A DNA stretch of 64,000 nucleotides from a virus. Position numbers and translations under genes: made by a program. The notes beneath the pieces were generated by a model that worked only from the letters and a program-made list of their open reading frames with translations, had not been told where the DNA came from and searched no databases. Shown here in pieces: positions 39,116-63,082 of the stretch; the first letter of the stretch is position 1, and each line of letters starts with the position of its first letter. The stretch is from IMG/VR virus record IMGVR_UViG_3300033153_010139, positions 32,001 to 96,000 of that record. One strand, given 5' to 3'.

Positions 39116-39676
39116 TCAGCGCTGACTCTGGAGGCGCTTGATCCGCCCGCGGCGCTCGCGGATCTCCCGCTTGAGCTTCTTGACCGCAGACTCGGCGCGC
39201 TTCCGCTTCTTCTCCCATGCGGCTAGCTTGGCCTCGGCCTTCGTGATCTCGGCCTTCTGGTAGGCCACGCCGGTCAGCTTCTCGGGCTCCGACGGCAGCG
39301 GCTTGATCCGCACGCGCCGGCCCTCGGCCCACTTCGGGACCGTCTTGTACCACCGGCACTTCTCCTTCGTGCCCTGGACGTACCACGAGACCAGAGAGCA
39401 GAGGTCGATGAGGACCGGCTGCGGTATCGCGGCGCCGCCGCTGGCGAGGCCGCCCAGCTGATCGATCGCGTCCACGGCGAGGCGCTCGGTGCGAATGATC
39501 TTCAGCGTGTTGCCGTGCGCGGTGACGGAGTGCTGGCGCGGGGCGTAGTAGACGACGCTCAGCGTGAGGTTGCGGAGGGGCCCGCCAGCCATGCTGACGC
39601 CCGAGTAGCTCGCGCACGCGCAGAACAGGCCCCGGATGTCCCTCCCATCGTAGCGGGTCTCGTTCTGGATCTTCAC
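39116..39676 (-). CDS. Hypothetical protein with basic coiled-coil C-terminus; internal DAIDQLGGLA motif
   Basis: Probable GTG start (VKIQNETRY); the upstream part of the listed ORF is shadow sequence. Confidence 0.6.
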   Translation of the reverse strand: MKIQNETRYDGRDIRGLFCACASYSGVSMAGGPLRNLTLSVVYYAPRQHSVTAHGNTLKIIRTERLAVDAIDQLGGLASGGAAIPQPVLIDLCSLVSWYVQGTKEKCRWYKTVPKWAEGRRVRIKPLPSEPEKLTGVAYQKAEITKAEAKLAAWEKKRKRAESAVKKLKREIRERRGRIKRLQSQR

Positions 39677-39684
39677 CGGGCGGG

Positions 39685-40221
39685 CTACTCCCCGCGCTGG
39701 ATCCGACCGAAGAGGCTGCCCAGGAGCGCCCCGGCCCGCAGCTCGGGCGGGGGGATCGCCGGGCGATCCTCGGGCACCGGCTTCGCGGGCGTCGTCGGGC
39801 AGGTGATCTGAGCCGCCAAAGCCATCTCGGGCTCCTGGGCGGGCTCCTGGGGCTCCTGGGGGGCCTCTGGTGCCTGGGCCGCGGGCTCGATCCCGGCCTC
39901 GGGGAGCGTGACCGGGTCCGCCTCCGGGCGGGGCACCGGCTTGGGCTTCGGCTTGGGCTTGGGCGTCGCCTCGGCCTTGCCCTCGACCTGATCGAGCAGG
40001 CGCTGGATGGCCTTCCTGCGCTTGGGGGTTGGGCCCTCGTCGATCAGGCCCCGAAGCACGCCGGCCAGCGCAGCCAGCTCCTCGGTGTCGCCGTCCGGCA
40101 GATTCCACCGGACCTGGACCTTCCACTTCTTCGCGTAGGCGTCGAGCCAGGCGGACAGCTCCTCGGATGCCGCGTCGTGGATCGCGTTGTAGAGCTTGTA
40201 GGACGTGAGCAGCAGTTTCAT
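39685..40221 (-). CDS. Hypothetical protein with Pro/Glu-rich tail
   Basis: AAAGGA RBS and a GGGTAGAAC motif upstream. Confidence 0.65.
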   Translation of the reverse strand: MKLLLTSYKLYNAIHDAASEELSAWLDAYAKKWKVQVRWNLPDGDTEELAALAGVLRGLIDEGPTPKRRKAIQRLLDQVEGKAEATPKPKPKPKPVPRPEADPVTLPEAGIEPAAQAPEAPQEPQEPAQEPEMALAAQITCPTTPAKPVPEDRPAIPPPELRAGALLGSLFGRIQRGE

Positions 40222-40240
40222 GGCGTAGTCCTTTCTCTGT

Positions 40241-40249
40241 GTTCTACCC
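40241..40249 (-). promoter_or_regulatory. GGGTAGAAC promoter-like motif
   Basis: About 20 nt upstream of ATG 40221; one of six copies. Confidence 0.55.
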
Positions 40250-40291
40250 GGCTGTGCGGGGTCAGGTGTTGCGCGCTCAGAATCTGGCGCA

Positions 40292-41224
40292 TTAGGCCGC
40301 CGCCCCGTTGTCGTCGGTCTTGGGCTTGGTCCGCAGGCTGTCCAGCGAGACGGGCGCGGACTTGGGCTGCTGGAGCAGGAGACCCTGCACCAGAGCCGCG
40401 ATCGTGCTGCTGCTCGTCTCGGGGAGACCGGCGGCCTCGACCAGGGCGGAAATCGCCGCGTCGATGGGGTGGGGCGGGAGCTTGGCGGCCGTCTTGACCT
40501 CGACGACCGTCTTGGGCTCGGGCGCGGGCTCGGCGACCGCGAGGATCGTGACCGGCATCTCCTCTGCTATCTCGGCAGCTTGCTTGAGGACGCTCTTGAC
40601 GACGTCATCGGGCATCGAGCCGCTCGGATCCATCTCGACCGGCGCCAGGGCCGCGAGCTTCTCGATCGTGCTGACCTTGACGTTGGCCATCTCGACGCCC
40701 AGGAGCTTCGCGCAGACAGGCCCGAGGCCGGTCTTGATCGAGGCGGGCACCGTCAGGGGAGCGGCGCAGCGACCGCAGATCCCGCGCTGCCAGACCTGGA
40801 TCTTGTGACCGGCTTCCTTGCCGTCCACGAGCCAAGCGATCACGTCGCCGATCATGTTGATGTTGACGGCGGTGGCGTGCTGGTTCTTCTTGGTGCCCTG
40901 CGTGGTGCGGAACCGGCGGGCGCCGTGCGTGTCGTCCACGCAGCCGAGGTACTTGTAGGAGCGCGTGTTGTCATCGCCGCAGAGCAGGTAGACGAACCAG
41001 CGATCCTTCTCGACCTGCTCGACGGTTCCGTCGGCCTGCTTGACGTCGTCCACGGCCCGCTTGATGTAGTAGGTGTGGCGGACGCTGCTCGCCTTCTCGA
41101 CGAGGGTAGTGACCGCGTGCCCGGCCAGCATGAACTTGAGGCAGTTCGGTCCCCAGGGGAGGGCCATGCCCGGGTCGAGCGTCTTCTTCGCCAGATTCTT
41201 CGTGCTTACGTGCTTGAGTGCCAT
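40292..41224 (-). CDS. DUF6011-like zinc-finger protein
   Basis: CGRC..PLTVPASI.TG.GPVCA signature; strong RBS. Confidence 0.7.
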   Translation of the reverse strand: MALKHVSTKNLAKKTLDPGMALPWGPNCLKFMLAGHAVTTLVEKASSVRHTYYIKRAVDDVKQADGTVEQVEKDRWFVYLLCGDDNTRSYKYLGCVDDTHGARRFRTTQGTKKNQHATAVNINMIGDVIAWLVDGKEAGHKIQVWQRGICGRCAAPLTVPASIKTGLGPVCAKLLGVEMANVKVSTIEKLAALAPVEMDPSGSMPDDVVKSVLKQAAEIAEEMPVTILAVAEPAPEPKTVVEVKTAAKLPPHPIDAAISALVEAAGLPETSSSTIAALVQGLLLQQPKSAPVSLDSLRTKPKTDDNGAAA

Positions 41225-41247
41225 GTGGGTTTCCTTCCTTCCACTGG

Positions 41248-41277
41248 CGCCAACAACGCTGGCGCGAAGTTCTACAC
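41248..41277 (-). repeat. 30-bp GTGTAGAACTT..GCCAGCGTTGTTGGCG element, copy 1
   Basis: Inverted relative to 41366-41395. Confidence 0.8.
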
Positions 41278-41365
41278 GATGTTCCGAGAAACATCTTGGA
41301 ATCGTTCTACCCCCGTTCTGGCAATGGGTTACGGCTTGTCGCCGCCAAAGGCTTTACGGAATTCC

Positions 41366-41402
41366 GTGTAGAACTTTCGGCCAGCGTTGTTGGCGGGGTT
41401 GG
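41366..41402 (+). repeat. GTGTAGAACTT..GCCAGCGTTGTTGGCG element, copy 2
   Basis: 36 of 37 bases identical to 52834-52870. Confidence 0.85.
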
Positions 41403-41424
41403 AGAAGATCCTCGGGAGAACCGG

Positions 41425-41433
41425 GGGTAGAAC
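41425..41433 (+). promoter_or_regulatory. GGGTAGAAC promoter-like motif
   Basis: 18 nt upstream of ATG 41452, before the GAGGAG RBS. Confidence 0.55.
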
Positions 41434-41451
41434 AACCACGAGGAGAACACG

Positions 41452-41715
41452 ATGAACCAAGACACGGTGAGAGCCGTAATCCTGGGCGCCGCCTGCGGCG
41501 ATCTGATGAAAGCTGTGGAGCTGGTTCTCGCACCGCTTGCGTGCGTCGAGTCCAATCCGGCTTCGGCCAGTGCCGCAGGACGATTCGCGGTAAGGGTTCC
41601 GATTGCCGATCTTCGCGACCTCAAAGCCAAGCACGATGGGGTGAAGCGCAGTGCTAGGATGACGGGAGCGGCCGACTGTGCCAACAGCCGACCGCGCCCT
41701 AACCCCGAGACCTGA
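41452..41715 (+). CDS. Small hypothetical protein
   Basis: GAGGAG RBS; first gene of the rightward accessory operon. Confidence 0.5.
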   Translation: MNQDTVRAVILGAACGDLMKAVELVLAPLACVESNPASASAAGRFAVRVPIADLRDLKAKHDGVKRSARMTGAADCANSRPRPNPET

Positions 41716-41716
41716 G

Positions 41717-42607
41717 ATGGAGGTCACCGTGGCTGGTACACGTTCTACCCCGAAGCTCTACTCCTACCAGGGTCGCCAGTGGCCGCTGCGCGATCTGGCC
41801 GAAGCGCACGGCATGGACGTGGGCACGCTCAGGAGCCGCCTCTACCGCGGACTGTCCTTGGAGGCGGCGCTGGCGCGGCCGGTGGGACCGGCGAACAACC
41901 CGAGGCGCAAGCAGGCACCGCACCACAAGACCGCCAAGCGGCTGCTCGGCAACACGTACGGCGAACTGACTGTCGTTGGCTACGAGACCGGCCCCGGCTG
42001 GAAGTGGAAGTGCCGGTGCTCGTGCGGAGCCGCGGTTCTGCGCGGCCAGAGCGACATGCTGCAAGTCGCCAGGAACAGCGTCGGCGCGTCCTGCAGCACG
42101 GCCCAACACCGCGGCGGGCTACCGCCATTCGAGACCATGCCCGAGTACTCCGTCTGGGGTTCGATGCGCGCAAGGTGCAACAACCCGAACAACAAGCGCT
42201 ATCCGCGCTACGGCGGACGCGGCATCAAGGTCTGCTCTCGGTGGAATGAACCGTACAACGGCTTCCTCCGGTTCGTGCGCGACATGGGCCGCAGGCCGTC
42301 GCCGGAGTTGACCATCGAGCGCGTTGACAACGACGGTGATTACGAGCCGGACAACTGCGAGTGGGCAAGCCGGAAGCAGCAGGCGCGGAACCGCGCAACC
42401 AACCGCCACCTGACCATCGACGGTGAAACGCGGACGCTGGCCGAGTGGAGCGAGTTGCACGGAATCCACTCGGCCACCATCAGCAACAGGCTGGTCCGGG
42501 GCTGGCCACCGCGTGTTGCCGTGTCAGCGCCGCCGATGAGCCCACGCGAGATGCAACAACTGAGCGCCGCAGTGCGGCGCGAGAAACGGAAGAGGGGCGA
42601 GACATGA
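41717..42607 (+). CDS. HNH-type homing endonuclease with flanking DNA-binding repeats
   Basis: W.SMRARC.NPN...YGGRGI.VC.RW...DMG.RP...TIERVDND..YEP.NC.WA. Confidence 0.85.
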   Translation: MEVTVAGTRSTPKLYSYQGRQWPLRDLAEAHGMDVGTLRSRLYRGLSLEAALARPVGPANNPRRKQAPHHKTAKRLLGNTYGELTVVGYETGPGWKWKCRCSCGAAVLRGQSDMLQVARNSVGASCSTAQHRGGLPPFETMPEYSVWGSMRARCNNPNNKRYPRYGGRGIKVCSRWNEPYNGFLRFVRDMGRRPSPELTIERVDNDGDYEPDNCEWASRKQQARNRATNRHLTIDGETRTLAEWSELHGIHSATISNRLVRGWPPRVAVSAPPMSPREMQQLSAAVRREKRKRGET

Positions 42608-43629
42608 GCATCAGCAGGGAGACGTGCCAGGCGGTCATCTTGGGAGCAGGTTGTGGCGATGCTCTCGGAGCGCCGACCGAGTTCCACCACATGGACAGCA
42701 TTCGGCGCCAGTTCGGCCAGGACGGGATCCAGGAGCTGGTGCAGACGTCCGGCCGGTACACCGACGACACGGCGATGTTGATCGCGCTGGCCGAGGGCCT
42801 GCTCGATGCGCACGGAGGCGCCCAGAGCTGGCGCGGCTACCCCGAAGCCCCAATGACCAGCCCGGACTTCGTGATGCCCTACGTCGCCAGGAGTTTCGTC
42901 GAGTGGTCCAACTCCGACCAGACCGGCCGCGCTCCCGGCAACACCTGCCTGGGCGGCTGCCGCAACATGGAGAAGGGCATGTCCTGGCGCGAATCCGGGA
43001 TCGCCCGCTCGAAGGGCTGCGGCGGGATCATGCGGGTGGCCCCCGTCGGGCTGGTCTACTCCGACGCCGGGGATGTCCTGAAGATCGCCCAAGCGCAGTG
43101 CACCTGCACACACGGACACCCGTCCGCCTACCAGGCTGCGCAGCTCGGGGCACTCGCTGTCCACCTGCTCGCGCGTCGCGGGCTCCCGGCATCCGACCTG
43201 CTCGAAACGCTCCGCGAGACGCTGGCCGTGATGCCCGACCCCGACCCCACGCTGACCGACCTGCTCTGGCGCGTCCGCGGGGCCCTCGATCTGGTCCACA
43301 CAGGCAAGGCCGGGCCGCACGAGGTCCAGCAACACATGGCCGGCGGCCCCAAGAACCTGGGCGAGAGCTGGCACGGCGACGAGGCGCTGGCGTCGTCGCT
43401 GTTCTGCTTCCTGCTCGCGCACGAGGCCGGCGAGGGCTACATCGAGACCGTGCGCTACGGCGCCAACACCGACGGCGACAGCGATTCGATCGCAACGATC
43501 GCGGGCGGCATGGCCGGAGCCTACTGGGGGCTGGGCGAGAAGGGCGTGCCCCAGAGCTGGATCGACCAGGTCGAGAGTGCCGACTACCTGCTGACGCTGG
43601 CCGACCGGCTCCACGCGGCGGCGCTGTGA
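42604..43629 (+). CDS. ADP-ribosylglycohydrolase (DraG/ARH family)
   Basis: GDALGAP, YTDDT, G.G.IMR.AP, THGHP and GDSDS motifs. Confidence 0.9.
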   Translation: MSISRETCQAVILGAGCGDALGAPTEFHHMDSIRRQFGQDGIQELVQTSGRYTDDTAMLIALAEGLLDAHGGAQSWRGYPEAPMTSPDFVMPYVARSFVEWSNSDQTGRAPGNTCLGGCRNMEKGMSWRESGIARSKGCGGIMRVAPVGLVYSDAGDVLKIAQAQCTCTHGHPSAYQAAQLGALAVHLLARRGLPASDLLETLRETLAVMPDPDPTLTDLLWRVRGALDLVHTGKAGPHEVQQHMAGGPKNLGESWHGDEALASSLFCFLLAHEAGEGYIETVRYGANTDGDSDSIATIAGGMAGAYWGLGEKGVPQSWIDQVESADYLLTLADRLHAAAL

Positions 43630-44039
43630 AGCTGATCGACCTCACCGGCTCGGATCGCCGGTTGCGCGTCCGACGCGTGAACGAGGAAAGCCTGGCGCGC
43701 TACGTGGCTGCCGAGGCGCGCAAGGATGACACGTGGGTCGTCGATGTCCGGCACGGCGGCACGGTGGCCAACGCCTACGGCTACCCCGCCGAGACCGAAT
43801 GCGCGCTGGCGGTCGCCAGCCCGGCCGGGTTGGTGATCGTCTGGCTCGCGCGGGCCAGCGCCAACGCGACGACCGAGCGGGGTGCGGCCGAAGCGTGCCT
43901 GCTGGGCGCCGGTGACCTGTGGGACGGCCGCGTCAAGCGCGAGGAGCGCAAGGACGCGGCGTGGGAGCTGATCAAGGCGACCTTCGCCGAGGAGATGCCG
44001 GTCGTAGACCAGCTCGCATCGCTCGTGGGGGCGGCATGA
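43626..44039 (+). CDS. Hypothetical protein, C-terminal tag PVVDQLASLV
   Basis: GTGA overlap; coupled on both sides. Confidence 0.65.
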   Translation: MKLIDLTGSDRRLRVRRVNEESLARYVAAEARKDDTWVVDVRHGGTVANAYGYPAETECALAVASPAGLVIVWLARASANATTERGAAEACLLGAGDLWDGRVKREERKDAAWELIKATFAEEMPVVDQLASLVGAA

Positions 44040-45380: not shown

Positions 45381-45916
45381 CGAGAAGGTACCGGAAGCCG
45401 AAGATCTTCACCGAAGACCCTGACCAAATGGCGGCCATGCGCCGCTGCGGCCAGTGCACGGCGTGCTGCACGTGCCCGAGCTTGAGCGTGCCCGACTGCA
45501 AGCGCCTCGACGCGCACTGCGTGCACCTGCGCCGCGGGCGCGCGAAGGCGAGATGCCCAGGGTGCGCCATCTACGACGCGAAGCCGGGCAACTGCCAGGA
45601 CTACGCCTGCTTCTGGCGGCTGGGGATGCTCGGCCGACACGAGCGCCCGGACAAGCTGGGCATCATCTTCGACACGGCGGCGCCGACGGTGCAGAAGGTG
45701 ATCGCGGCAGCTGGCGTGCCGGTCGTGCTCGCGCGAGAGACCTACCCGGGCTCGTCCAACAACTCGCGCACGAAGATAGCGATCCTCGCCATGGCGGACA
45801 GCTTCGGCGTGATCCGCGTCGGCGTTGCGGCCGGTCCGATCGTTCACGCGGCGACGCAGGAGATTACCGACAAGGTCATCGCGGCCATCGAAGCGGTGGA
45901 AGCGGAGAGCGCATGA
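45377..45916 (+). CDS. YkgJ-like CxxCxxCC metal-cluster protein
   Basis: CGQCTACC...C.HL...C.IY..KP..C..Y.C.W. Confidence 0.7.
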   Translation: MTRRYRKPKIFTEDPDQMAAMRRCGQCTACCTCPSLSVPDCKRLDAHCVHLRRGRAKARCPGCAIYDAKPGNCQDYACFWRLGMLGRHERPDKLGIIFDTAAPTVQKVIAAAGVPVVLARETYPGSSNNSRTKIAILAMADSFGVIRVGVAAGPIVHAATQEITDKVIAAIEAVEAESA

Positions 45917-46305
45917 TCGAGCGCCGGGTGATCTACGACGAGACCGACGTCAAGCTCGTGATGCGCTTCGCGCAGGAGAACAAGAAGGGCGAGGTCGTCG
46001 AGCGCCGTTACGCCGCCCGGCGCAGCGCTGGCGGGAAACACGAGTGGTACGTCACCTTGACCCCCTCTCGGGCGTACGGGTTCGATGACGTGGCCTGGGC
46101 GCGGCGCTACTCGAAGATCGTCAAGCGGTTCAAAGAGTTCGCGGAGGGCGCCCACGGCAAGGGCTGGAGGACGGAGGTCGTCGAGATGACCGACCGCCGC
46201 GTCAGGACGCGCGAGATCAAACAGCTCTACCCGGTCGTAGACGCGATCGAGGCTCTGGCGGACCTGGGACGCGCGACGAACAAGAGAATCGCAGGAGGAG
46301 TCTGA
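45913..46305 (+). CDS. Hypothetical protein, tag DAIEALADLG near C-terminus
   Basis: ATGA coupling. Confidence 0.65.
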   Translation: MIERRVIYDETDVKLVMRFAQENKKGEVVERRYAARRSAGGKHEWYVTLTPSRAYGFDDVAWARRYSKIVKRFKEFAEGAHGKGWRTEVVEMTDRRVRTREIKQLYPVVDAIEALADLGRATNKRIAGGV

Positions 46306-47549: not shown

Positions 47550-49913
47550 ATGGGCGAGCCTTACCTGAACGTTGTTGGCGTCGGAGACGCTCTGGAGTAC
47601 CTGCGTCGCGTTCCCGACAGTTCCATCGACTCGTGCGTGGCGGACGCTCCGTACGGATTGGGCACGCCGCCGATACCGCAGGAGGTCATGTTCTTCTGGA
47701 TGCGGGGCAAGGACTATAACGCCAAAGGCACCGGCTTCATGGAGGCGTCGTGGGACGCGTTCGTTCCGGGACCGCCGATCTGGAAAGAGGTCTACCGCGT
47801 TCTGAAGCCCGGCGCCTGGTGCCTGGTGTTCTTCGGCACGCGCACCTACGACTGGGGCGCGATGGCGATGCGGTTCGCCGGGTTCGAGGTGCAGGACTGC
47901 GCCTCTTGGATCTTCGGATCGGGCTTCCCCAAATCGCTGAACGTCTCGAAGGCCATCGACGCGCACCTGGTCTCCGGCTACAGCGACTCCCATGCGCTGA
48001 AGCACGCGAACGACAACGTTCGCACCGGCGAGGGCCGGGAGCGCGCGAGCACGCACAACCGCGGAATCTCAAGCCACGACGAGCGCGGCGGCAGGACCAT
48101 TCGCGACGAGCCCGCGACTGAGGACGGCAAGCGCTGGCAGGGCTGGGGCACGGCAATGAAACCGGCCCAGGAGCTTGTCGCGATGGCGCGCAAGCCGTTC
48201 GACGGTACCTACGCCGAGCACGTGCTGGAGCACGGCACGGGCGCGTTGAACATCGACGCGAGTCGCATTGCCGCCAGCGATCCGGTGAACTTCCAGTTCG
48301 GACCTTCCGAGAGCTTGGGGCATGGCTCGTTCAAGATGGCCGACTCGACGGACGCCAAACGCGCGAACACGCTGTGGGAGAACACGCAGGGGAGGTGGCC
48401 AACGAACGTCCTCTTCCAGCACCTGCCCGAGTGCCAGCTGGTCGGCACGAAACGCGTGGCGACTGGAACGGCGGTGAAGCGGAATCTGCCACCCGAGGGC
48501 GCGAGCCGGCGGGTCGGCAACAAGGCACGCACGCAACGCGGCGATGACATTACCTACGCCGACGCGGACGGCAAAGAGGCCATCGAGGAATGGGACTGCG
48601 CGCCGGGTTGCCCGGTCGGCGAGCTAGATCGGCAGAGCGGCGTCAGCAGCTCAACCGGCGGTACCGGCGAGGCCAGCAAACGAACCGCGGGCAGCGGTAG
48701 CGTCTTCCAGCGCCCGAGTAACACGGGCGGATTTGGCGATACCGGCGGCGCCAGCAGGTTCTTTCTGACGCTGCCAGCGACGGTTGACCAATCGGGTTCT
48801 TCTATGCACGATGAAGCACAGGAGACGCTATGCAACGATCGTGCGAGCAGTGCGCCGGAACGTTCGACGCCAGGCCGTCGGCAGTTGCACGAGGTTACGG
48901 GCGGTTCTGTACCAGGCAATGCGCCGGACTCGCGCGACGCGGTCGAGGGCGAGTTGACGCCTGGAGATATTTCAGCAAGCGCGATGGGCGCTGGTACCGA
49001 AAATGGCGGGAACCCGGCTCGCGGAAGCTCCGCTCCCAGCTCGAAAACCGCTGGATCTGGGAGCAAGCGCACGGCGCTATCCCCGAGGGGCACGAAGTCC
49101 ATCACCGGAACGGGCGCCAAACCGACAACACCCCCTCCAACCTCCAGCTCGTCACAGAAGCATGGCACGACAACTATCACCAGCGACGACGAGAGGCGCA
49201 CCGTAACAAGAACGGGCACGAGGAGAGACGCTGCCAGTGCTGCAAGCGATGGAAGCGCCTCAACCACTTCAGCATTCGCCGGGCCGGAACCTACCATGGC
49301 TACTGCAAGCCCTGCGCCCGCCGGAAGCTCCAAGAGTGGCGTGCCGCGAACCGAGAACACCACAACGCCTACATGCGAGCCTACCGTCGAAGACAAGCTC
49401 GCCTCTAGCCCCCGCTTCTTCTACCACGCGAAGGCGGCGAACAAGGAGCGCTGGTCCTACTGCCGCACCTGCAAGATCGCGTTCCAGCACAGTCGCGAGC
49501 GCTTCAAGGAGCACGAAGCGCACAAGGACGAGGTCATCTCGCACCCAACTCAAAAGCCGCTCAAGCTCATGGAGTACCTGGTCCGGCTGGTCACGCAACC
49601 CGGCGGCGTCGTGCTTGATCCTTTCTGTGGTACCGGATCGACGCCGGTGGCAGCCAGACGGCTCGGGCTCAACTTCGTGACCTGTGACCTGGACGAGGAC
49701 TACACGCACATCGCGCGCGCCAGGCTGGGGCAGATCGGTCGAGAGGCCGAGTCAGCGCTTACCTCCGGCGCCTACTTCTGCCCCGGCTGCAAGGCAAAGG
49801 GCGAGATCAAGCTGATCGCCCGGGAGGCCGTAGAGCGCATGCGCAAGCGCGGCAAGAAGACGACCTGCGTGAAGTGCATGGAGCGATACACCTACGAGGA
49901 GCTGGTCACGTGA
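47550..49913 (+). CDS. DNA methyltransferase (N6/N4, beta class) with ~210-aa insertion
   Basis: DAPYG (motif IV variant), RVLKPG, GSGFPKS, GWGTAMKPA, GRWPTN, HPTQKP and DPFCGTGST. Confidence 0.9.
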   Translation: MGEPYLNVVGVGDALEYLRRVPDSSIDSCVADAPYGLGTPPIPQEVMFFWMRGKDYNAKGTGFMEASWDAFVPGPPIWKEVYRVLKPGAWCLVFFGTRTYDWGAMAMRFAGFEVQDCASWIFGSGFPKSLNVSKAIDAHLVSGYSDSHALKHANDNVRTGEGRERASTHNRGISSHDERGGRTIRDEPATEDGKRWQGWGTAMKPAQELVAMARKPFDGTYAEHVLEHGTGALNIDASRIAASDPVNFQFGPSESLGHGSFKMADSTDAKRANTLWENTQGRWPTNVLFQHLPECQLVGTKRVATGTAVKRNLPPEGASRRVGNKARTQRGDDITYADADGKEAIEEWDCAPGCPVGELDRQSGVSSSTGGTGEASKRTAGSGSVFQRPSNTGGFGDTGGASRFFLTLPATVDQSGSSMHDEAQETLCNDRASSAPERSTPGRRQLHEVTGGSVPGNAPDSRDAVEGELTPGDISASAMGAGTENGGNPARGSSAPSSKTAGSGSKRTALSPRGTKSITGTGAKPTTPPPTSSSSQKHGTTTITSDDERRTVTRTGTRRDAASAASDGSASTTSAFAGPEPTMATASPAPAGSSKSGVPRTENTTTPTCEPTVEDKLASSPRFFYHAKAANKERWSYCRTCKIAFQHSRERFKEHEAHKDEVISHPTQKPLKLMEYLVRLVTQPGGVVLDPFCGTGSTPVAARRLGLNFVTCDLDEDYTHIARARLGQIGREAESALTSGAYFCPGCKAKGEIKLIAREAVERMRKRGKKTTCVKCMERYTYEELVT
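48830..49408 (+). CDS. HNH endonuclease nested out of frame inside the methyltransferase gene
   Basis: Own AGGAG RBS; CEQC..RFCTRQC zinc finger; HGAIPEGHEVHHRNG..TDN..SNLQLV...H HNH; C-terminal CQCC/YCKPC. Confidence 0.85.
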   Translation: MQRSCEQCAGTFDARPSAVARGYGRFCTRQCAGLARRGRGRVDAWRYFSKRDGRWYRKWREPGSRKLRSQLENRWIWEQAHGAIPEGHEVHHRNGRQTDNTPSNLQLVTEAWHDNYHQRRREAHRNKNGHEERRCQCCKRWKRLNHFSIRRAGTYHGYCKPCARRKLQEWRAANREHHNAYMRAYRRRQARL

Positions 49914-52944: not shown

Positions 52945-54075
52945 ATGAGCGGCTTCAACGATCTTGCCGAGCTGATTTGCGAGGACACCCCCGAGGAGGT
53001 GCCCGTATTCCTGAAGGGCCCGCCCGGGATCGGGAAGTCGGCGCTCTGTCAGGCCGTGTCGGCCGCCTTCGCCAAGAAGGCCGAGGCCGCGAACCGGACG
53101 TTCGCGTTCGATCGCTGGGAGCTGACGGTGCACCAGCCCGAGGATCTCTCGGGAATCCCGTTCGCCCACGACGGTTGGATGCGGTTCTGCCCGCCCGAGA
53201 GGCTGGCCCCGTTCTGCGCCGGCTCCGGCGTGAACGGCACCGACCCAATCGGTTGCCTGGTCTTCGAGGACGTCACTCACGCGAGCCAGGCCGTCAAGAA
53301 CGGCATGCTGCAGCTCGTGCAAGAGCGCACGCTCGGTGCCCTGGTCCTGTCGCCAGACATCCGCATTCTCATGACGGGCAACCGCACGAGCGACAAGGCC
53401 GGCGCTCGTGACCTGCTGTCGGCGTTGAAGAATCGCGTTCTCGTTCTCGACCTCCAGCCGAATCTCGAAGAGTGGATGCTCTGGGCCGGCTCGCGCGGGC
53501 TCCCCTCGGTGATCGGTGGGTTCCTGAGCTGGAAGCCAGGATCGTTCTCGACGCTGCCCAACAGCGAGTGCAAGGAGAACGGCCAGTTCGCCACGCCCCG
53601 GAGCTGGGCCAACGTCGGGGCCTGCTACAACAAGGTCTTCCGCAACGGCAGCACGGCCGCGGCTTACAGCAAGCTGCTCCTGCAGACGTCGGGGCTGATC
53701 GGTCAGGGGCACGCGCACGAGTTCGTGGCCTTCGTCCGGCTCAAGGAGGAGTACCCCGACCCCAAGAAGATCCTGGACGACCCCGAGAACGCGCTGCCCA
53801 AGCCGCCGACCGAGGCCGACCGGGTGATCGCGCTCGTCACGGCGCTCGGCGACTACTCCGCGCACCACCAGGAGAAGGACAAGGCGATCTACCTCAAGCT
53901 GCTGCTGGCGCTCTCGCACGTCTCCGGCAAGAACCGCGAAGGCTGCGCCGCAGGCGTCTCGGTCTTCCAGGCGTGCGGCGGCGATGTCGCCAAGCTCGTG
54001 GACGCTGCCGACAAGAACAAGAAGGATGGCCGGGTTCTGGCGGTGCTGAAGTTCTTCGCCGAGGCGACCAAGTGA
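52945..54075 (+). CDS. MoxR-like AAA+ ATPase
   Basis: GPPGIGKS, DL.G.P, LVFED (atypical Walker B), TGNR..D, AL.NR and FATPRSW. Confidence 0.9.
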   Translation: MSGFNDLAELICEDTPEEVPVFLKGPPGIGKSALCQAVSAAFAKKAEAANRTFAFDRWELTVHQPEDLSGIPFAHDGWMRFCPPERLAPFCAGSGVNGTDPIGCLVFEDVTHASQAVKNGMLQLVQERTLGALVLSPDIRILMTGNRTSDKAGARDLLSALKNRVLVLDLQPNLEEWMLWAGSRGLPSVIGGFLSWKPGSFSTLPNSECKENGQFATPRSWANVGACYNKVFRNGSTAAAYSKLLLQTSGLIGQGHAHEFVAFVRLKEEYPDPKKILDDPENALPKPPTEADRVIALVTALGDYSAHHQEKDKAIYLKLLLALSHVSGKNREGCAAGVSVFQACGGDVAKLVDAADKNKKDGRVLAVLKFFAEATK

Positions 54076-55361
54076 GCGCCAAGGCCAAGCCGGCGCTCGA
54101 CGTTCGCTACGAGGTGGGTCTGGCGCGCACGCGGTGCGTCGCGCGCCTCCCCCTGATCGGGCGGATCGTCATGCAGATGGCGCCTCGGGCCGCACGGCCC
54201 GAGGACGGGGTTTCGACGGCGGCGATCTCCCCCGACGGAACGGCGATCTTCAACCCCGACTACCTGGCGACGCTGAACAACAAGCAGCGGGCCGGCGTAG
54301 TTGCGCATGAGGCGTTCCACCCGGCGCTGCTGTTCTGGCAGCGCAAGGGTACGCGCAACATGCTGCTCGCGAACATCGCGCACGACCTGGTGATCAACCC
54401 CTACATCGAGGAGCTGTCCTGCGGCGAGATCGAGTTGCCGCCCGGCGCGTTGCTCGACCCCAAGTTCTACGGCATGGCGATGGAGGAGGTCTACACCTAC
54501 CTCCAGAGGGGCGACCCGAACACGCCCGGAATGACCAACGTCAAGTGCAAGGGCGGCGGCGAGATCACCGTGGACACCACGTCCGGCGGCGATCCCGGCG
54601 GCGACGGCAGCGGCATGGGCGGGAGCCTGTGGGGCGACTGCCGTCCCGACCTGTCCGACAGCAAGGACGGCAAGAAGGCCGCGAAGGGCGACGCGTCAGC
54701 GCAGAAGAAGCTCGAAGGCCAGTGGAAGATGGCGCTCGCCGAAGCGGTGCAGCAGCACGAGGCTCGCAAGAGCCAAGGCAGGCTGCCGGCCGGACTCAAG
54801 CGCTACATCGACGAGCTGCTCCACCCCCAGCTCGACTGGACCGAGGAGCTGGCGCGCTGGTGCGGTGACAACGGGAAGCGCGAGAACTACTCGTTCCGGC
54901 GCCCGCACCGTTGGTCCTGCTCGCTCGGCACCGTGCTCCCCAGCCAGTGCCTCGGCGGATTCGCTGACGTCGTGTTCCTGCTCGACACGTCCGGCTCCAT
55001 GAGCAAGCACGAGATCAGCCGCGGCATGTCCGAGTGCGGTGGAATCCTCGAAGCCATGGGGTCCGAGATCCGCGTGTTGATCTGCGACGCTGACGTGCAC
55101 GTGGACATGACCATCGAAGACGCGCTCGACGTCGAGATCAAGGGCGGCGGGGGGTCCAACTTCATCCCGGCCTTCGATCTGCTCGAAGAGAGCGGCTTCG
55201 ACGGCGCGGTAATCGCCTTCACCGACGGAATGATCAGCGTGCCCCACGAGAAGCCGCCCTCCCTGAAGGGCTGCCTGTGGGTCACCACCGGCGACTACGA
55301 TCCGCCGAGCGAAGGCGAATGGGGCGAGCACATCAAGATGCCGCCGGAGACCGACCAGTGA
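54072..55361 (+). CDS. DUF2201-type metallopeptidase-vWA protein
   Basis: AHEAFH (HExxH), NIAHD..IN, DTSGSM MIDAS, GGGGS.F and FTDG. Confidence 0.88.
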   Translation: MSAKAKPALDVRYEVGLARTRCVARLPLIGRIVMQMAPRAARPEDGVSTAAISPDGTAIFNPDYLATLNNKQRAGVVAHEAFHPALLFWQRKGTRNMLLANIAHDLVINPYIEELSCGEIELPPGALLDPKFYGMAMEEVYTYLQRGDPNTPGMTNVKCKGGGEITVDTTSGGDPGGDGSGMGGSLWGDCRPDLSDSKDGKKAAKGDASAQKKLEGQWKMALAEAVQQHEARKSQGRLPAGLKRYIDELLHPQLDWTEELARWCGDNGKRENYSFRRPHRWSCSLGTVLPSQCLGGFADVVFLLDTSGSMSKHEISRGMSECGGILEAMGSEIRVLICDADVHVDMTIEDALDVEIKGGGGSNFIPAFDLLEESGFDGAVIAFTDGMISVPHEKPPSLKGCLWVTTGDYDPPSEGEWGEHIKMPPETDQ

Positions 55362-55919: not shown

Positions 55920-56679
55920 GACTGGCACGCGCGAATGGGCGGCCAGGAATTTGAACATCGCCACAGGGTGTTCGCACGACTGCAGATATTGCTACGCCCG
56001 CCACGACGCCGTCAAACGCTTCAAGCGGATTGAACCGGCCGACTGGACGACCATGGTCGTGGACCAGGCGCGCGTCGCCAAGGGCTACGGCAAGCGCAAG
56101 AACGAAGACGACTCCGTCTACGACATCATGTTTCCGACGGCTCATGATGTTACGCCCGAGATCGTGGGCGACTGCATCACCGTGCTCAAGAAGGTGCTGG
56201 ACGCCGGCAACACCGTGCTGATCGTGACCAAGCCGCACCTGGCGTGCGTGGCCAAGATGATCAGCGCGCTCGGCCAGTGGAAGGCGCAGGTGGCCTTCCG
56301 CTTCACCATCGGCGCCGACACGGACGAGATCCTGTCGGTCTGGGAGCCGGGGGCGCCGCCGTTCGCGGAGCGCCTGGCCGCACTGAAGACCGCGTTCGAT
56401 CACGGCTGGACTACGAGCGTCAGCGCCGAGCCCATGCTCGACCCGGCGAACGTCGATCGGCTCGTGAACCAGCTGCTCCCGTTCGTCAACGAGACCTTGT
56501 GGCTCGGCAAGATGAACAAGATCCGCTCACGCTGTACGGGCTTGCCCGAGTCAGCGCTGACCGCGCTGGAAGCCGAATACACCGACGACAAGATCCTGCA
56601 GATCGTCGATCGCTGGGACGGCACGCCGCAGATCGAGTGGAAGGATTCGATCAAGCAGGTGATCGAGGCGCGGGGGTGA
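55906..56679 (+). CDS. Radical SAM protein (DUF5131/gp37gp68-like)
   Basis: GCSHDCRYCYA CxxxCxxC motif, LIVTK and S.EP.L. Confidence 0.85.
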   Translation: MTKRKTGTREWAARNLNIATGCSHDCRYCYARHDAVKRFKRIEPADWTTMVVDQARVAKGYGKRKNEDDSVYDIMFPTAHDVTPEIVGDCITVLKKVLDAGNTVLIVTKPHLACVAKMISALGQWKAQVAFRFTIGADTDEILSVWEPGAPPFAERLAALKTAFDHGWTTSVSAEPMLDPANVDRLVNQLLPFVNETLWLGKMNKIRSRCTGLPESALTALEAEYTDDKILQIVDRWDGTPQIEWKDSIKQVIEARG

Positions 56680-56924
56680 CCCGCGAGGAGTGCGAAGAAG
56701 GCGTCGCTGTCATCGTCTCGCGCGGGTGGCTCCGAGGGCGCGTCGGGAGGATCCGCCAGGAGGGGCTTTGGGACATGGAGACCACCGTGTGGGTCTACTT
56801 CTCCGACTGCGCGGTGAACATCCAGCCCAAGCGGTTGGCCTTCGCGTCTGCGGTAGACCTGTTAGCGGACGTGGCCCGACGGTGGCCGCACGTGCGGGGC
56901 ACCATACGGTTGGCGGTGTCGTGA
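56676..56924 (+). CDS. Small KOW/SH3-like protein with tag SAVDLLADVA
   Basis: GTGA coupling; G..V.V..G..RG..G.I pattern. Confidence 0.6.
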   Translation: MTREECEEGVAVIVSRGWLRGRVGRIRQEGLWDMETTVWVYFSDCAVNIQPKRLAFASAVDLLADVARRWPHVRGTIRLAVS

Positions 56925-57169
56925 GCGACAACATCAACGAGCCGACCTACCCGATCGGTGCCCGAGTGCGCGTGTTCTGGACGTTCGGTGGCGACCCTCT
57001 GCCAGGCGGCTACACAGGCGTAATCGTTCAAGCGCCACGGTGGACGGCGATCGGCTGGGAAGCCTGCGTCCGCCGCGATGATCTGCCGGGGCAGTTCGAC
57101 AAGTGGATCCAGGCGGATCACGTCTCTGCTCTCAGCGCCGTGGAATTGCTCGCGGAGCTGTCGCCATGA
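56921..57169 (+). CDS. Small SH3-like protein with C-terminal tag SAVELLAEL
   Basis: Coupled; GARVRV...YTGVIV pattern. Confidence 0.6.
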   Translation: MSDNINEPTYPIGARVRVFWTFGGDPLPGGYTGVIVQAPRWTAIGWEACVRRDDLPGQFDKWIQADHVSALSAVELLAELSP

Positions 57170-57357
57170 GCTTCAAGCTGGGCGACCCTGTCGAATTCGA
57201 GGACGATCACGGCAACAAGCGCAAAGGCAAGGTCGTGAATCCAGGTCACGGAGAGCCGGAAGGCATCGGCGTCGAGTGGACGGAGATGGCCTACTTCTCA
57301 TCGCACGAGCTGCGGCACGTTTCTGCCGTAGACCGACTCGCGGAGCTGGCGTCGTGA
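57166..57357 (+). CDS. Small SH3-like protein with C-terminal tag SAVDRLAELA
   Basis: Coupled; FKLGD.V...KGKVV...VEW pattern. Confidence 0.65.
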   Translation: MSFKLGDPVEFEDDHGNKRKGKVVNPGHGEPEGIGVEWTEMAYFSSHELRHVSAVDRLAELAS

Positions 57358-57758
57358 TCGTCAACGTCGAGACGGCCGAGGGCAACCGCGAGTTCATCGT
57401 ACCGTCGCAGTGGCACGGTGCGGTGCTCTCACTGCTGGAGACCATCGACAGGTGGGTCATGTCCGGGGTCGGCGAGATGGTCCAACCGCGGCTGATCGAC
57501 AGGGGTGTCAGGTCAATCGCGGTGATCAAGGTACTGCGGACCTACTACGAGATTACGCTCATGGAGGGGAAGCGCTACGTGGACCGCGCGCCGATTACGC
57601 TCCCCCCGCTCCCGCACATCAAGGCGCAGAAGATGCTCATCGAGCTGGAGAGCGTAGGCGCAAAGGCCGAGCTGCCCAGCGCCGTGGATCGCCTGGGAGC
57701 ACTCGCAAAACACGACGCTGACGCGGCACGGGCCATGTCGGCACTGAACGGAGAATGA
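57354..57758 (+). CDS. Ribosomal protein bL12 (L7/L12) C-terminal-domain-like protein with tag SAVDRLGALA
   Basis: IAVIKVLR....ITLMEGKRYVD.AP.......A.KM..ELESVGAKAEL matches the bL12 CTD pattern. Confidence 0.7.
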   Translation: MIVNVETAEGNREFIVPSQWHGAVLSLLETIDRWVMSGVGEMVQPRLIDRGVRSIAVIKVLRTYYEITLMEGKRYVDRAPITLPPLPHIKAQKMLIELESVGAKAELPSAVDRLGALAKHDADAARAMSALNGE

Positions 57759-60349: not shown

Positions 60350-60541
60350 TGGTCCATGTCCTACTCCCAATAGTGCCCCCGGCTGTCGGTAAAAGCAAGG
60401 GTTACGCGTGGTCGGCGGGTCTGGGGAGCCAAACCGCACCCGTGATAGGGGCACCAGGAGTCCCCCAGCGTTCCAGCACAACAGCCGCTAACGCAATGGC
60501 TTACGCCAACCGGCCGTGCGATGTCACGACCTGCGCCAGTG

Positions 60542-60736
60542 TCAGGAATTTCTTGGTAACTCGGCGGCGCGCGCGAGGTTGCCGAGGAGGTCCACGGCGC
60601 TCGGGTCCAGCGCGCGGTGAAGCTCGGAGCCCTCCTCGACGCGGACCCAGTTCGATCGGGACTTGATGGTGCGCTCGTAGATCTCGTTGGAGGCGCGAGT
60701 GATGCGCTCGATCAGGTCAGGATCGGGCGACGTCAT
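60542..60736 (-). CDS. Small protein with tag SAVDLLGNLA
   Basis: 64 aa, coupled to the upstream gene. Confidence 0.55.
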   Translation of the reverse strand: MTSPDPDLIERITRASNEIYERTIKSRSNWVRVEEGSELHRALDPSAVDLLGNLARAAELPRNS

Positions 60737-61199: not shown

Positions 61200-61228
61200 G
61201 CGGCTGCACCAGGAACACGGACTACGCG

Positions 61229-61570
61229 CTACGCCCCGGCTTTCCAAGTTTCCAGGCTGCGCATCTCGACCGGGCGGCCGTCCGTCTCGGCGCGCGCGAT
61301 GCCGAGCTTCATGCCATCGCTGATGCCGAGGTCGGTGTAGACCGCCGTCAGCTCGGCGCGCTCCCCCCACGCGAGCCCGGCCTCGATGCCGAGCGTCCGC
61401 TCGGCGGGATCGTTGTCGTCCAGCACGCCGGGCTGCGTGTAGAGCAGGTGGGAAGCGTACGGCGCGTCGCCGCGCTTCAGGCAATCCCGCATCGCGGCCC
61501 TGGCGTACGCCTTGTTCTTCGCAACGTCGCCCGCGAACGGGCTCTCGATAAGGACGAGTCTGAAGCTCAT
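61229..61570 (-). CDS. Conserved phage protein, nucleoside deoxyribosyltransferase-like fold
   Basis: V.IESPFAGD...N..YAR....D....G.APYASHLLY...LDD..P.ER..GI..G..W...Y.DLGIS.GM; CAGGAG RBS. Confidence 0.7.
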   Translation of the reverse strand: MSFRLVLIESPFAGDVAKNKAYARAAMRDCLKRGDAPYASHLLYTQPGVLDDNDPAERTLGIEAGLAWGERAELTAVYTDLGISDGMKLGIARAETDGRPVEMRSLETWKAGA

Positions 61571-61654
61571 TCGTTCTCCTGATTTCAGGAACACGGGCGC
61601 CGGCCACGGGCGAGTATGGAAACCCGTGGCCGGCTCTGCCGCATACCGCATTGA

Positions 61655-62067
61655 TGGAGGCGCAGAGAGTCGAACTCTGGTCCCGTAACCGCTCCCTCCC
61701 AGCCTCTACGTGCGTAGTTCGCTGAAGGTCTCACCTACGAGCTGCAGCGAGCACAAAACTCGTAGGCCAGTCACAGAACTTTCTCGTCTCTTCCCCCTGC
61801 GACGCAGGGTTGAGACCAGCCCATCTTGTGGCCCTGCTTCAGCTCCCATGGGCGGGGGGCTGTAGCAGGGGGAGTCCCGTCTTAGACGAGGACGGCCTCG
61901 GTCGAGTCCACCGTCGCCATGAAGACGTCGATGTTGTCGTCCGAGAGCCACTCCGGGGTGCTGTTCGCGTTGGCAAATAGCGTTTTGCCGGTGGTTTTAC
62001 GAGGCCAACCGGCGACCTCGGCACGCAACTGGGGCTTCGCAAGTCCGGTCGATACCGGGCCGCCCCC
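61655..62067 (-). ncRNA. ssrA: tmRNA
   Basis: 5' GGGGGCG..GG.ATCGAC pairs with 3' CGCCTCC-A (G3.U70). T arm CAGAG-TTCGACT-CTCTG. Internal tag ORF starts GCC AAC. CCA is not encoded. Confidence 0.92.
61882..61974 (-). other. tmRNA tag reading frame ANANSTPEWLSDDNIDVFMATVDSTEAVLV*
   Basis: Resume codon GCC follows the A/T-rich segment after pseudoknot 1; ends TAA. Confidence 0.75.
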
Positions 62068-62204
62068 AATGTGGAGTCGTGTTCCTGATTGTCAAAAAGC
62101 GCAAGACGACGAGCAGGGCCGGGTCCGTGGGGAAAAGGTCGGGGATGGTAGGACCCTCCCCTGCTCGCCTCTTTGTTATACCCCCGACGTCGGAGGTGTC
62201 GAGA

Positions 62205-62729
62205 CTAGAGCTTGCTCGCGACCCTGGCGATGACGTCGGCGATGGTGGCTTCGGTCGGTTCGAGGCCGCCGTTCCACGGCTGCGGGAACAAGCAGGCTTC
62301 GCCGCCGGCAGCGAGGAACGACGCGATATGCTCAGGCGAGTCGTCCACGAGCACGCGCGTAGGCTGGGCGAGCAGGTCTTTGCTGGAGGTGAGGTGGATG
62401 TCTCGGAATTGCCGGCCGAACATCTTGTCGAACCACATCTTCTTGCCGGCGTAAGACTGCCACGACCAGCCGGGCTGGGTGACGAACAGTACGCGCCCGA
62501 GCGCCTTGAACCCGTTGTAGAGCTGGTCAAACCACGGGTAGACGTCCAGATCGCGCCAAAACTCCGGCCCGGCCGCGTCGATGACGCGCCAGAACTCGGT
62601 TGGCGTAACGCCGATGTAAGGCTCCAGCCGGTACGAGGTCATGTCCTTGACCTGGAAGTCAGAGCCGTGAGCGAGGAGAGCCCCGCGCATGAAATCGACG
62701 CACACGCCGTCTACGTCGAGCAGGATCAT
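62205..62729 (-). CDS. 5'(3')-deoxyribonucleotidase (NT5C-type HAD)
   Basis: LLDVDGV..DF, FW..L..YP, K..W and LVDDSP. Confidence 0.85.
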   Translation of the reverse strand: MILLDVDGVCVDFMRGALLAHGSDFQVKDMTSYRLEPYIGVTPTEFWRVIDAAGPEFWRDLDVYPWFDQLYNGFKALGRVLFVTQPGWSWQSYAGKKMWFDKMFGRQFRDIHLTSSKDLLAQPTRVLVDDSPEHIASFLAAGGEACLFPQPWNGGLEPTEATIADVIARVASKL

Positions 62730-63082
62730 ACGAGGTCTCCCAGTTTTTCTACGGCCGATGGTTCTGGTTGTACGCGGGTAATGCTGGCGCTAACGTCCAG
62801 TTCAGCGCCGCGGCCGTCGTTCATGGCCTCGGCACGGACGGTCAGCCGTTCGTTCGGTCTCACGCGCGCTTTGGCTATTATCATCGCTTCGCTAACCCAG
62901 GCGCGCCGGATGTAGACGGCGGTCTCGCTACGGACCGTGACGAATGCCGGTTCGGTGGCGTAGATCGCCAACTCCAGGTCAAGGGCGCCTGGCGGCGTCA
63001 CGCACAGCTCACGGGCGGGCTCGCCCGTGAAGATCCGCAGCGCGACCGCTTCGGCGATTATGGAACCGGCAGGCGGTCTCAC
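62726..63082 (-). CDS. Hypothetical protein with C-terminal tag SAVEKLGDLV
   Basis: Coupled on both sides. Confidence 0.55.
   Translation of the reverse strand: MRPPAGSIIAEAVALRIFTGEPARELCVTPPGALDLELAIYATEPAFVTVRSETAVYIRRAWVSEAMIIAKARVRPNERLTVRAEAMNDGRGAELDVSASITRVQPEPSAVEKLGDLV

Follow-up and report, generated by a model that had tools for sequence, protein, structure and literature searches.

A ten-residue, mostly C-terminal and probably helical tag on unrelated accessory proteins of an uncultivated jumbo phage: a candidate docking or targeting signal

The stretch of viral DNA analysed here (64,000 nucleotides, hereafter the window) covers bases 32,001–96,000 of a 119,266-bp IMG/VR record. 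Twelve open reading frames (ORFs) of the window encode proteins that carry variants of one ten-residue peptide, which we refer to as the tag (Table 1). The record, called G000 below, has a CheckV completeness of 43%, a G+C content of 65% and 161 called genes, with a coding density of 93%; genes were called with a codon-usage caller, the start codons being approximate and the C-termini not. An earlier note on the same DNA had listed twelve copies of the peptide, all of which we find where it had placed them and on the same strands. They are exactly the matches obtained in the window when the consensus S-A-[VI]-[DE]-x-L-[AG]-x-[LIV]-[AV] is scored with a position matrix, at a threshold of at least 12 bits. 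The note had put ten of the twelve copies within about 30 residues of the C-terminus; these ten are in fact at most 16 residues away from it, the copies of g082 and g084 being internal. It had also seen no clear copy in the virion genes, and a six-frame scan with the matrix indeed finds none in the virion block (window 1–37,730).

Table 1. Genes of the window that carry the tag, and other genes discussed in the text as possible parts of a putative reader. Positions are those of the window; residues after the peptide in the tag column are separated by a hyphen.
Gene	Position	Strand	Product	Tag	Tag position	Residues from tag to stop	Bits
g082	39116–39676	-	186 residues	DAIDQLGGLA (internal)	39443–39472	108	21.1
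g084	40292–41224	-	310 residues, DUF6011 (2.4e-9)	STIEKLAALA (internal)	40643–40672	116	
g088	43626–44039	+	137 residues	PVVDQLASLV	43998–44027	3	19.0
g092	45913–46305	+	130 residues	DAIEALADLG	46240–46269	11	
small Cys-rich ORF	49874–50101	+	75 residues	NAIDALGDLV	50057–50086	4	15.0
g096	50098–50865	+	255 residues, N6/N4 DNA methyltransferase (PF01555, 1.8e-27)	SAVDQLAQIA-L (C-terminal)	50830–50862	1	24.4
g098	51624–52193		unannotated				
g100	52945–54075	+	MoxR-type AAA+ ATPase (AAA_5, 2.2e-6); clade-specific candidate reader component				
g101	54072–55361	+	putative HExxH zinc metallopeptidase (DUF2201_N, 4e-26) with vWA-like DUF2201 (2.6e-16); clade-specific candidate reader component				
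g105	56676–56924	+	82 residues, no Pfam match	SAVDLLADVA	56847–56876	15	
g106	56921–57169	+	82 residues	SAVELLAELS-P	57134–57166	1	
g107	57166–57357	+	63 residues	SAVDRLAELA-S	57322–57354	1	27.6
g108	57354–57758	+	134 residues, bL12 C-terminal-domain-like (PF00542, 4.2e-7)	SAVDRLGALA	57678–57707	16	
g115	60542–60736	-	64 residues	SAVDLLGNLA	60572–60601	9	
g120	62726–63082	-	118 residues	SAVEKLGDLV (exact C-terminal end)	62729–62758	0	

In the whole record, the matrix retrieves 38 matches in 37 of the 161 proteins, against a mean of 0.57 in 30 shuffles (2 at most) and none in the reversed sequences. When the 119,266 bp are scanned in six frames (about 238,000 codon positions), 39 matches are obtained: 38 are in frame with a called gene, one is in the plausible uncalled 75-residue ORF of Table 1, and none is in another frame. 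The matrix was trained on its own matches, which is why the frame test and the shuffles serve as controls, the former being the better one. The 75-residue ORF overlaps the last 40 nucleotides of g095 (787 residues) and was missed by the simple gene caller; in the region of g095, the list of ORFs holds 47550–49913 (+) and 48830–49408 (+).

A megablast search with 24 kb against 50,697 deposited phage records returned no match, and the relatives of G000 are metagenomic records. Searching viral contigs for the exact peptide SAVDRLAALA led to two of them, G001, a complete genome of 275,101 bp with direct terminal repeats, and G002, a fragment of 159,664 bp. G000 to G004 form what we call clade I. 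Two other records, G006 (89% complete) and G007, with a major capsid protein (MCP) that is 69% identical, form the sister clade II, whose G+C content is 0.56–0.58, against 0.65 in clade I. Four relatives are more distant: G008, G009, G010 and G012, with MCPs 30–38% identical in the case of G008, G010 and G012 (91–100% complete). The MCP of G001 shares about 25–30% identity with its counterparts in large myoviruses, T4-like ones among them, and the portal protein belongs to the Portal_T4 family of Pfam; the window record is therefore a fragment of an uncultivated jumbo phage of about 275 kb with a T4-like head. The replicative polymerase is of family A and bears an intein (Intein_splicing, 1.4e-7). 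The prohead protease and this polymerase are encoded at 191,916–194,747 and 40,847–43,639 of G001; the sequence of the protease suggests a fusion with a long scaffold domain of coiled-coil type, and an intein with a LAGLIDADG-type block, recognised by eye, seems to split it.

The recurrence of the peptide exceeds that in shuffled controls in the relatives as it does in G000: carriers amount to 109 of the 423 proteins of G001 (1.2 in shuffles) and 48 of the 221 proteins of G002 (0.55 in shuffles). There are 103 carriers among 276 proteins in G004 and 21 among 184 in G003, which means that the tag marks 11% of the genes in G003 and 22–37% in each of the other four records of clade I. In G001, the long arrays of small genes at 90–179 kb have 83 tagged genes out of 212, the region of replication and nucleotide metabolism 6 out of 64, and the virion block 5 out of 92.

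The preference for the C-terminus is also seen on this larger scale. The five genomes of clade I have 323 copies between them, of which 216 are at most 10 residues from the end of the protein (43 are exactly terminal) and 238 at most 20; 42 lie at 21–59 residues and 43 further in. A de novo comparison of C-termini finds 1066 similar pairs in G001, compared to 183 when internal segments are used and 201 when the tails are shuffled; the corresponding figures for G006 are 104, 54 and 50. The same test detects no shared tail in G008, G010 and G012, and acidic low-complexity tails only in G009.

Residue counts over 199 copies from three genomes define the tag further. Position 1 is S in 131 copies and D in 28, position 2 is A in 173, position 3 is V (135) or I (62), and position 4 is D (124), E (53) or T/S (19). 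Position 6 is L in 196 copies, position 7 is A (113) or G (85), and position 9 is L (122), V (35) or I (34); position 10 is A, V or G. Any residue is accepted at position 5, R and Q being the commonest, and at position 8. An acidic residue is found at position 4 or 1 in nearly every tag: where position 4 is T or S (19 copies), position 1 is D in 18 (10 of the 11 with T, all 8 with S). Such reciprocity, with S/D at position 1 paired with D/E or T/S at position 4, is that of a capping box at the N-terminus of a helix, and the tag is therefore best read, from its sequence, as a three-turn amphipathic α-helix, whose hydrophobic face would consist of V/I3, L6 and L/I/V9, flanked by the small residues A2, A/G7 and A/V10. 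The tag is usually preceded by a proline-rich linker, with a weaker pattern immediately upstream (L, V or I at −4 in 46% of the copies, E/R at −3, P/E at −2 and P at −1), and is followed by R, D or E, or by the stop codon. In a minority of copies, which we call class B (13 of 323 with a strict pattern), it continues as -DPE-x-A-x-R-[VI]-x-x-[WY]-D, which looks like a second helix.

The possibility that the tag is a repeat or a regulatory motif at the DNA level is ruled out, since synonymous codons vary freely, which shows that selection acts on the peptide. In the same 199 copies, for instance, serine is encoded by TCT (10), TCC (12), TCA (9), TCG (58), AGT (5) and AGC (37). The codons used for leucine, alanine and valine in the copies are near their genome-wide proportions; deviations are modest, such as extra GAT at position 4.

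The carriers do not form a paralogous family either, since no similarity can be detected between them once the tag and the next 20 residues are masked. Clustering of the masked sequences (BLASTP, E<1e-3) sorts the 37 carriers of G000 into 37 clusters (37/37 singletons), the 109 carriers of G001 into 107 (105/109 singletons) and the 103 carriers of G004 into 86 (80/103 singletons, with one family of 9 members). The earlier note had described the carriers of the window as having unrelated folds: Pfam bears this out for the methyltransferase, the DUF6011 protein and the bL12 C-terminal domain, the SH3-like assignment has no Pfam match, and the Cys-rich character is visible by eye only (CPCGDCG). 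Other carriers have an SNase-type nuclease domain, a Zeta_toxin/AAA_33-type P-loop kinase domain (g034, 5.5e-8, record 21,506–22,414, upstream of the window) or a domain resembling the S77 prohead protease (g134, Peptidase_S77, 3.8e-4). In G001, the tag is found on RNase H (h128), and internal copies are present in PolA (h055, in a loop insertion) and in a DnaB_C-like protein (h040). Small proteins have the same isoelectric point whether they are tagged or not, and a hydrophobic segment is present in 3 of 163 tagged compared to 20 of 339 untagged ones. A resemblance by eye had suggested that the tag might derive from a Ribosomal_L12_N-like sequence, an origin that no Pfam match supports. A search with g107 in 5.8 billion proteins, a database in which matches to the tag alone cannot reach significance, returned three proteins, which are its own sequence and two close homologues. 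The AlphaFold2 model of g108, obtained with three sequences, is helical in the tag region; its mean predicted local distance difference test score (pLDDT) is 61.8, so the model is too weak to be used.

Beyond the window, at 96,148–102,027 of the record (64,148–70,027 on the scale of the window), lie about 17 overlapping micro-genes coding for proteins of 50–233 residues, most of which are tagged, and several of which join the tag to part of a conserved protein that the phage itself encodes. The product of g132 resembles residues ~24–124 of the MCP (E values of 1e-9 to 1e-12 against the MCPs of relatives; Pfam Gp23, 0.003), a fragment which we take to be the 'Gol' region of T4 gp23. The C-terminus of g136 resembles weakly that of the MCP (E 0.002), g133 also has a weak BLAST match to the MCPs of relatives, g139 contains a piece of the protease, g129 a piece of a tail-sheath-like protein, and g128 resembles a segment of PolA (Pfam positions 205–228; Pfam 0.022, PHROG 0.004) that we have taken as motif B. 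Some of these genes are maintained: g132 is kept in G001–G003 at 42–52% identity, and g134 in G001 and G002 at 35–41%. The micro-proteins made of such fragments could be adaptors, decoys or dominant-negative pieces. We also considered that eight of the micro-genes might encode capsid fragments, and rejected this: profile searches of the record give one MCP-like fragment only, and BLAST supports g132 and, more weakly, g133 and g136.

The tag is better conserved than the proteins that bear it. Between G001 and G002, conservation is 0.84 in the tag and 0.62 in the body, the tag being higher in 30 of 33 pairs; between G000 and G001 the values are 0.64 and 0.37, and the tag is higher in 9 of 10 pairs. 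The motif is kept in the orthologues of g084 (h414 and k059), and those of g092 (h420 and k050) read DAVEALADLG. Homologues that lack the tag also exist, as the earlier note had proposed to check. This is so for h411 of G001, the orthologue of g082 (for which there is no Pfam family), for g057, whose counterparts h378 and k075 are tagged, and for h353 and k097, the untagged counterparts of g034. The last case illustrates clearly how a tag is gained or lost: the tag of g034 is an insertion of about 12 residues near the C-terminus, which is missing from the orthologues in G001 and G002 although these are 60–64% identical. Similarly, the tag of RNase H is a C-terminal extension and that of PolA an insertion of a 25-residue loop, and both are absent from the sister clade.

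Clade II has a tag of its own. The clade I matrix retrieves 3 of 251 proteins in G006 and none of 136 in G007, while a variant, x-[VI]-L-[DE]-x-[LM]-[AS]-x-[IV], is found in 37 of 251 and 7 of 136, respectively, with a matrix trained on the same genomes (shuffles give 2.5 and 1.0). The copies of G006 are again at the C-terminus, 14 of 38 exactly and 20 of 38 at most 3 residues from the end, and in the orthologous bL12-like and S77-like proteins each clade has its own variant at the aligned position. Sequence and evolution together show that the tag is enriched, selected as a peptide and modular, and that it is the same throughout a genome and differs from one lineage to another.

The earlier note had proposed that the tag is a docking or targeting helix that binds a single hub, and this is partly supported. 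The peptide is selected and should form a helix, its carriers are unrelated, it is mostly C-terminal, missing from the virion block of the window, modular and uniform within a genome, and these are the features that would be expected of a docking or targeting tag with a single, putative partner. We consider it probable that one common reader, most likely encoded by the phage and co-evolving with the tag, would grip all carriers by this helix. Among the 61 core genes common to clades I and II, 28 have no BLAST match in the four distant relatives; they include those of CobT, of the unannotated h003/g098 (Table 1) and of h334. So many genes share this pattern of presence and absence that it is weak evidence, and cannot designate one reader. 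The gene of h334, a protein of 277 residues, belongs to the head module and lies between the genes of the portal and of the protease–scaffold protein. No Pfam or PHROG family matches h334, and PHROGs give nothing for eight other shortlisted or unannotated proteins. The structure model of h334 has a pLDDT of 83.7; Foldseek finds nothing in the PDB at E≤0.001, and a wide VIA search gives generic helical-bundle matches only, over residues 169–277 (best Z 8.7, root-mean-square deviation 2.8, 101 aligned residues). A prediction of the complex between the MCP of G001 (81-row alignment) and the tagged protein h014 (79 residues), run without controls, scored 0.00 and counts neither way.

As for what the reader might be, we tentatively favour the possibility, which is well short of being probable, that it is part of the assembling T4-like prohead, either the scaffold or core or the inner face of the shell. 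The tag would then load some enzymes and a varied, fast-evolving set of small accessory proteins into the head, from which they would be delivered together with the DNA, and it would be the functional equivalent of T4's capsid-targeting sequence or of the cargo-loading peptides of encapsulins, but C-terminal and present on a quarter of the proteome. This guess is based on the T4-type head module (MCP, Portal_T4) and on what is described in passages of PMC3012670 for T-even phages, whose diverse internal proteins, which counter host defences, share only a capsid-targeting sequence and are packed in about 1000 copies. It is also based on the occurrence in both clades of a tagged S77-like paralogue, while the true protease appears to be fused to the scaffold, on the near absence of tags in the virion block (in G001, 5 of its 92 genes), and on the few small tagged genes that are inside tail and baseplate operons (h367, h378). 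We consider doubtful the fuller version, in which a clade-specific component of the prohead reads the putative C-terminal helix and so loads more than a hundred exchangeable accessory proteins into the capsid, for entry with the DNA. The cargo would include nucleases, a methylase, a kinase and 'bait' micro-proteins made from fragments of the capsid, protease, sheath and polymerase. If this were true, a new gene would need no more than the ten-residue tag to become part of the injected arsenal.

Several observations weigh against loading into the head. No member of the clade is in culture, and the closest MCP of a cultured phage is about 30% identical; 109 cargoes is far above any known packaged set; and some carriers are of the replication type, which would be unexpected in a head, namely RNase H, the PolA with its loop insertion and the DnaB_C-like protein. 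A T4-type [LI]xE site is found at most 12 residues upstream of 51 of 237 tags, compared to 26 of 237 control windows; the site is enriched, but a T4-like removal of the tag is not the rule. The tagged genes are in long arrays of small genes that have an early or accessory look (G001, 90–179 kb), and the T4-type late promoter TATAAATA is not found in G001. Last, the MCP, the protease and the portal are also present in the four distant relatives, three of which have no shared tail, so that a receptor in the head would need a clade-specific site or a clade-specific protein such as h334. A distinct observation concerns the start of the two longest arrays of tagged genes, a divergent region of 59 bp at 134,459–134,517 of G001. 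No sigma-70-like promoter is found in this region, the main divergent one of G001, which contains a near-perfect palindrome, GTTCTACCCGGG...CCCGGGGTAGAAC, perhaps an operator or else a promoter element peculiar to the phage.

The reader could instead be a machine made of a MoxR AAA+ ATPase and a vWA protein, as the earlier note had suggested, and the tag would mark its clients or substrates, which would be remodelled, trimmed or destroyed; capture by the vWA domain (perhaps through a metal site and the acidic residue of the tag) or by the peptidase of g101 would result in timed processing or turnover. The pair is indeed present in the window (g100 and g101, just upstream of the tagged cluster g105–g108), and g100 has orthologues in G001, G002 and G003. 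Neither g100 nor the g101 family is found in G006 and G007, which have a tag, the g101 family being also absent from the G004 fragment; g100/g101 cannot therefore be the universal reader, and would at best be specific to one clade. A second pair, CobS-like (AAA_5 and CbbQ_C) and CobT (CobT_C/vWA), could take their place, since it is conserved in both tag-bearing clades, and CobT has no BLAST match in the four distant relatives, three of which lack a shared tail. However, that pattern is the one common to 28 of 61 core genes, and CobS and CobT may have an ordinary role, because G001 also encodes a class II B12-dependent ribonucleotide reductase (2e-137). The three are found together at 81,916–84,669 and 36,405–38,950 of G001, and at 111,826–115,321 of the window record. 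Genes of the cobS/cobT type also occur in many phages that are not known to have such a tag. The nearly universal acidic residue at position 4 or 1 would suit such a machine, and passages of PMC7159879 describe both the capture of peptides by vWA domains with MoxR partners and zincin peptidases that act on small, fast-diverging proteins with a conserved C-terminal peptide; the tag is unlike the C-terminal peptides that these passages name (FxSxx, RxD or acidic). All in all we judge a MoxR/vWA reader improbable. Independently of this question, we note that an N-terminal extension of about 80–140 residues is conserved in four of the five CobS-like orthologues compared.

It may also be that the host provides the reader, the tag being a degron or adaptor peptide for a host AAA+ protease, or a means of docking to an abundant host hub; the outcome would be the rapid turnover of early proteins or the saturation of the protease, and the two variants of the tag would reflect different hosts. 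The G+C contents of the two clades fit the latter idea, tags end in small or aliphatic residues, no phage-encoded reader has been singled out, and the bias towards the C-terminus is clear, with the exactly terminal copies counted above for clade I and for G006. On the other hand, most clade I tags precede 1–10 mostly charged residues, and some are internal or followed by 23–63 residues, so a free C-terminal carboxylate cannot be required. With 185,579 bacterial and archaeal species represented by one genome each, the exact peptide SAVDRLAALA, the one 10-mer searched, occurs seven times; each occurrence is internal and a singleton, so that the tag is not seen in any family of host proteins. A host reader is thus unlikely in our view. 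Recruitment to the DNA or to a replication factory of the phage by a DNA-bound platform, in the manner of the clamp-binding tails of T4 or of PCNA-interacting (PIP) boxes, seems quite improbable to us. The recognisable domains of carriers do belong mostly to nucleic-acid enzymes (DNA methylase, SNase-type nuclease, RNase H, PolA, DnaB_C-like), alongside the Zeta/AAA_33-type kinase, and the ends of T4 gp43 (SLDFLFG) and gp55 (SLDFLYEAND) are loosely like [VI]LDxLAxI-COOH. But no gp45-type clamp is detected in G001, G006 and G007 (PF09116 and PF02916, no match at E≤1), which would leave a very divergent clamp or that of the host; the replicative polymerase is of family A, the tag has none of the aromatic residues of the T4 motif, and most carriers are tiny proteins, the bL12-like one being a poor fit. 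The absence of any common reader is, to us, highly improbable. The tag would in this case be a C-terminal cap with a generic role, in structure or stability, that recombination among small genes would have spread, or a coupling aid that acts on the ribosome at termination, when many tags would sit in the exit tunnel. Tagged genes overlap the next gene somewhat more often than small untagged ones in G001 (65% against 56%) and in G004 (86% against 64%). This difference is small and absent in G000 (50% against 54%), and tags also precede gaps; as the association with overlapping junctions is weak, we rejected a signal for translational coupling. The distance between the tag and the stop ranges from 0 to more than 60 residues, and there is no repeat in the DNA to drive recombination. 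Moreover, six positions are conserved over more than 300 copies, above the level of the protein bodies, which generic helix capping can hardly explain, and the switch of a whole clade to a variant is equally hard to account for.

Two other loci of G001 are worth recording. At 17,340–19,016 (−), a homologue of Ro60 (TROVE, 4.3e-9; Ro60 vWA, 6.6e-9) is beside gene-free gaps of 3.5 and 1.9 kb, which might hold RNA genes. At 39,023–39,808, between the genes of CobT and PolA, a protein of 261 residues without a Pfam match has a cluster of Cys and His residues and, with GAISF as its last residues, an acidic tail, and so resembles single-strand-binding proteins of the gp32 type.

We found no published description of the tag in open-access full texts and in bioRxiv. 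If one tag marks 22–37% of the genes and switches in concert between sister clades, then much of the small-gene 'dark matter' of jumbo phages would be handled as one group by one reader. To identify this reader would be to learn what hundreds of orphan proteins have in common, be it packaging and injection, timed destruction or localisation; the tag would also be portable for engineering.

The closest comparison is with the capsid-targeting sequence of T4 (found on IPI–III and Alt), which, in passages of PMC3012670, is an address into the prohead core. There too, a peptide of about ten residues is the only element common to a diverse, fast-evolving set of proteins, accessory or anti-defence, and the head of the phage is of the gp23/gp20/gp21 type. 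That sequence is N-terminal and is cut off by the prohead protease at L/I-x-E, unlike the jumbo-phage tag, which is C-terminal or internal and has no consistent site; the T4 sequence has a handful of carriers, compared to 22–37% of genes here. The peptides that load cargo into encapsulins and bacterial microcompartments are short and terminal, are borne by unrelated enzymes and dock inside a protein shell, to its lumen (the shell being of HK97 fold in encapsulins), and those of microcompartments are amphipathic helices on a flexible linker. The tag is likewise a short C-terminal peptide common to unrelated proteins; it has a different consensus and one to two orders of magnitude more carriers.

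Other likenesses are mechanistic. The LD motif of paxillin, LDXLLXXL, is described in passages of PMC2572193 as an amphipathic helix whose leading Asp makes electrostatic contacts. Like the tag, it is short, with a leading Asp and Leu at i+2/i+3, and occurs in many copies, its readers being domains with a helical bundle or a groove; the clade II tag, [VI]-L-D-x-L-A-x-I, is particularly reminiscent of it. The LD motif belongs to eukaryotic focal adhesions and the spacing of its last hydrophobic residue differs, so that the analogy is one of mechanism only. The clamp-binding tails of T4 gp43 and gp55 (SLDFL[FY]) are also hydrophobic and acidic C-terminal tails on unrelated proteins, with an L-D-x-L core, but the tag has R/Q/A/L and A/G in place of the aromatic residues, there are hundreds of carriers, mostly not replication or transcription proteins, and no gp45-type clamp was detected in G001, G006 and G007. 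Systems of vWA and MoxR proteins (Kaur, Burroughs, Iyer and Aravind 2020; PMC7159879) combine, in the passages concerned, a MoxR AAA+ ATPase, a vWA protein and a zincin-like peptidase (fused to the vWA domain in g101) with small variable proteins that have a conserved C-terminal peptide; they are bacterial conflict systems with one precursor each and other motifs, and the phage pair is missing from the tagged sister clade. As to degrons like that of ssrA, the free C-terminus in which they end is found in 43 of 323 copies in clade I and 14 of 38 in G006, whereas most clade I copies are followed by 1–10 residues. In kind, the tag belongs with the terminal address and docking peptides (the capsid-targeting sequence, encapsulin and microcompartment peptides, the peroxisomal signal PTS1, clamp tails and LD motifs), although by sequence or position it is a member of none of these groups; what is new is its sequence, the form of a capped C-terminal helix in a phage, its scale, and the concerted switch between two sister clades.

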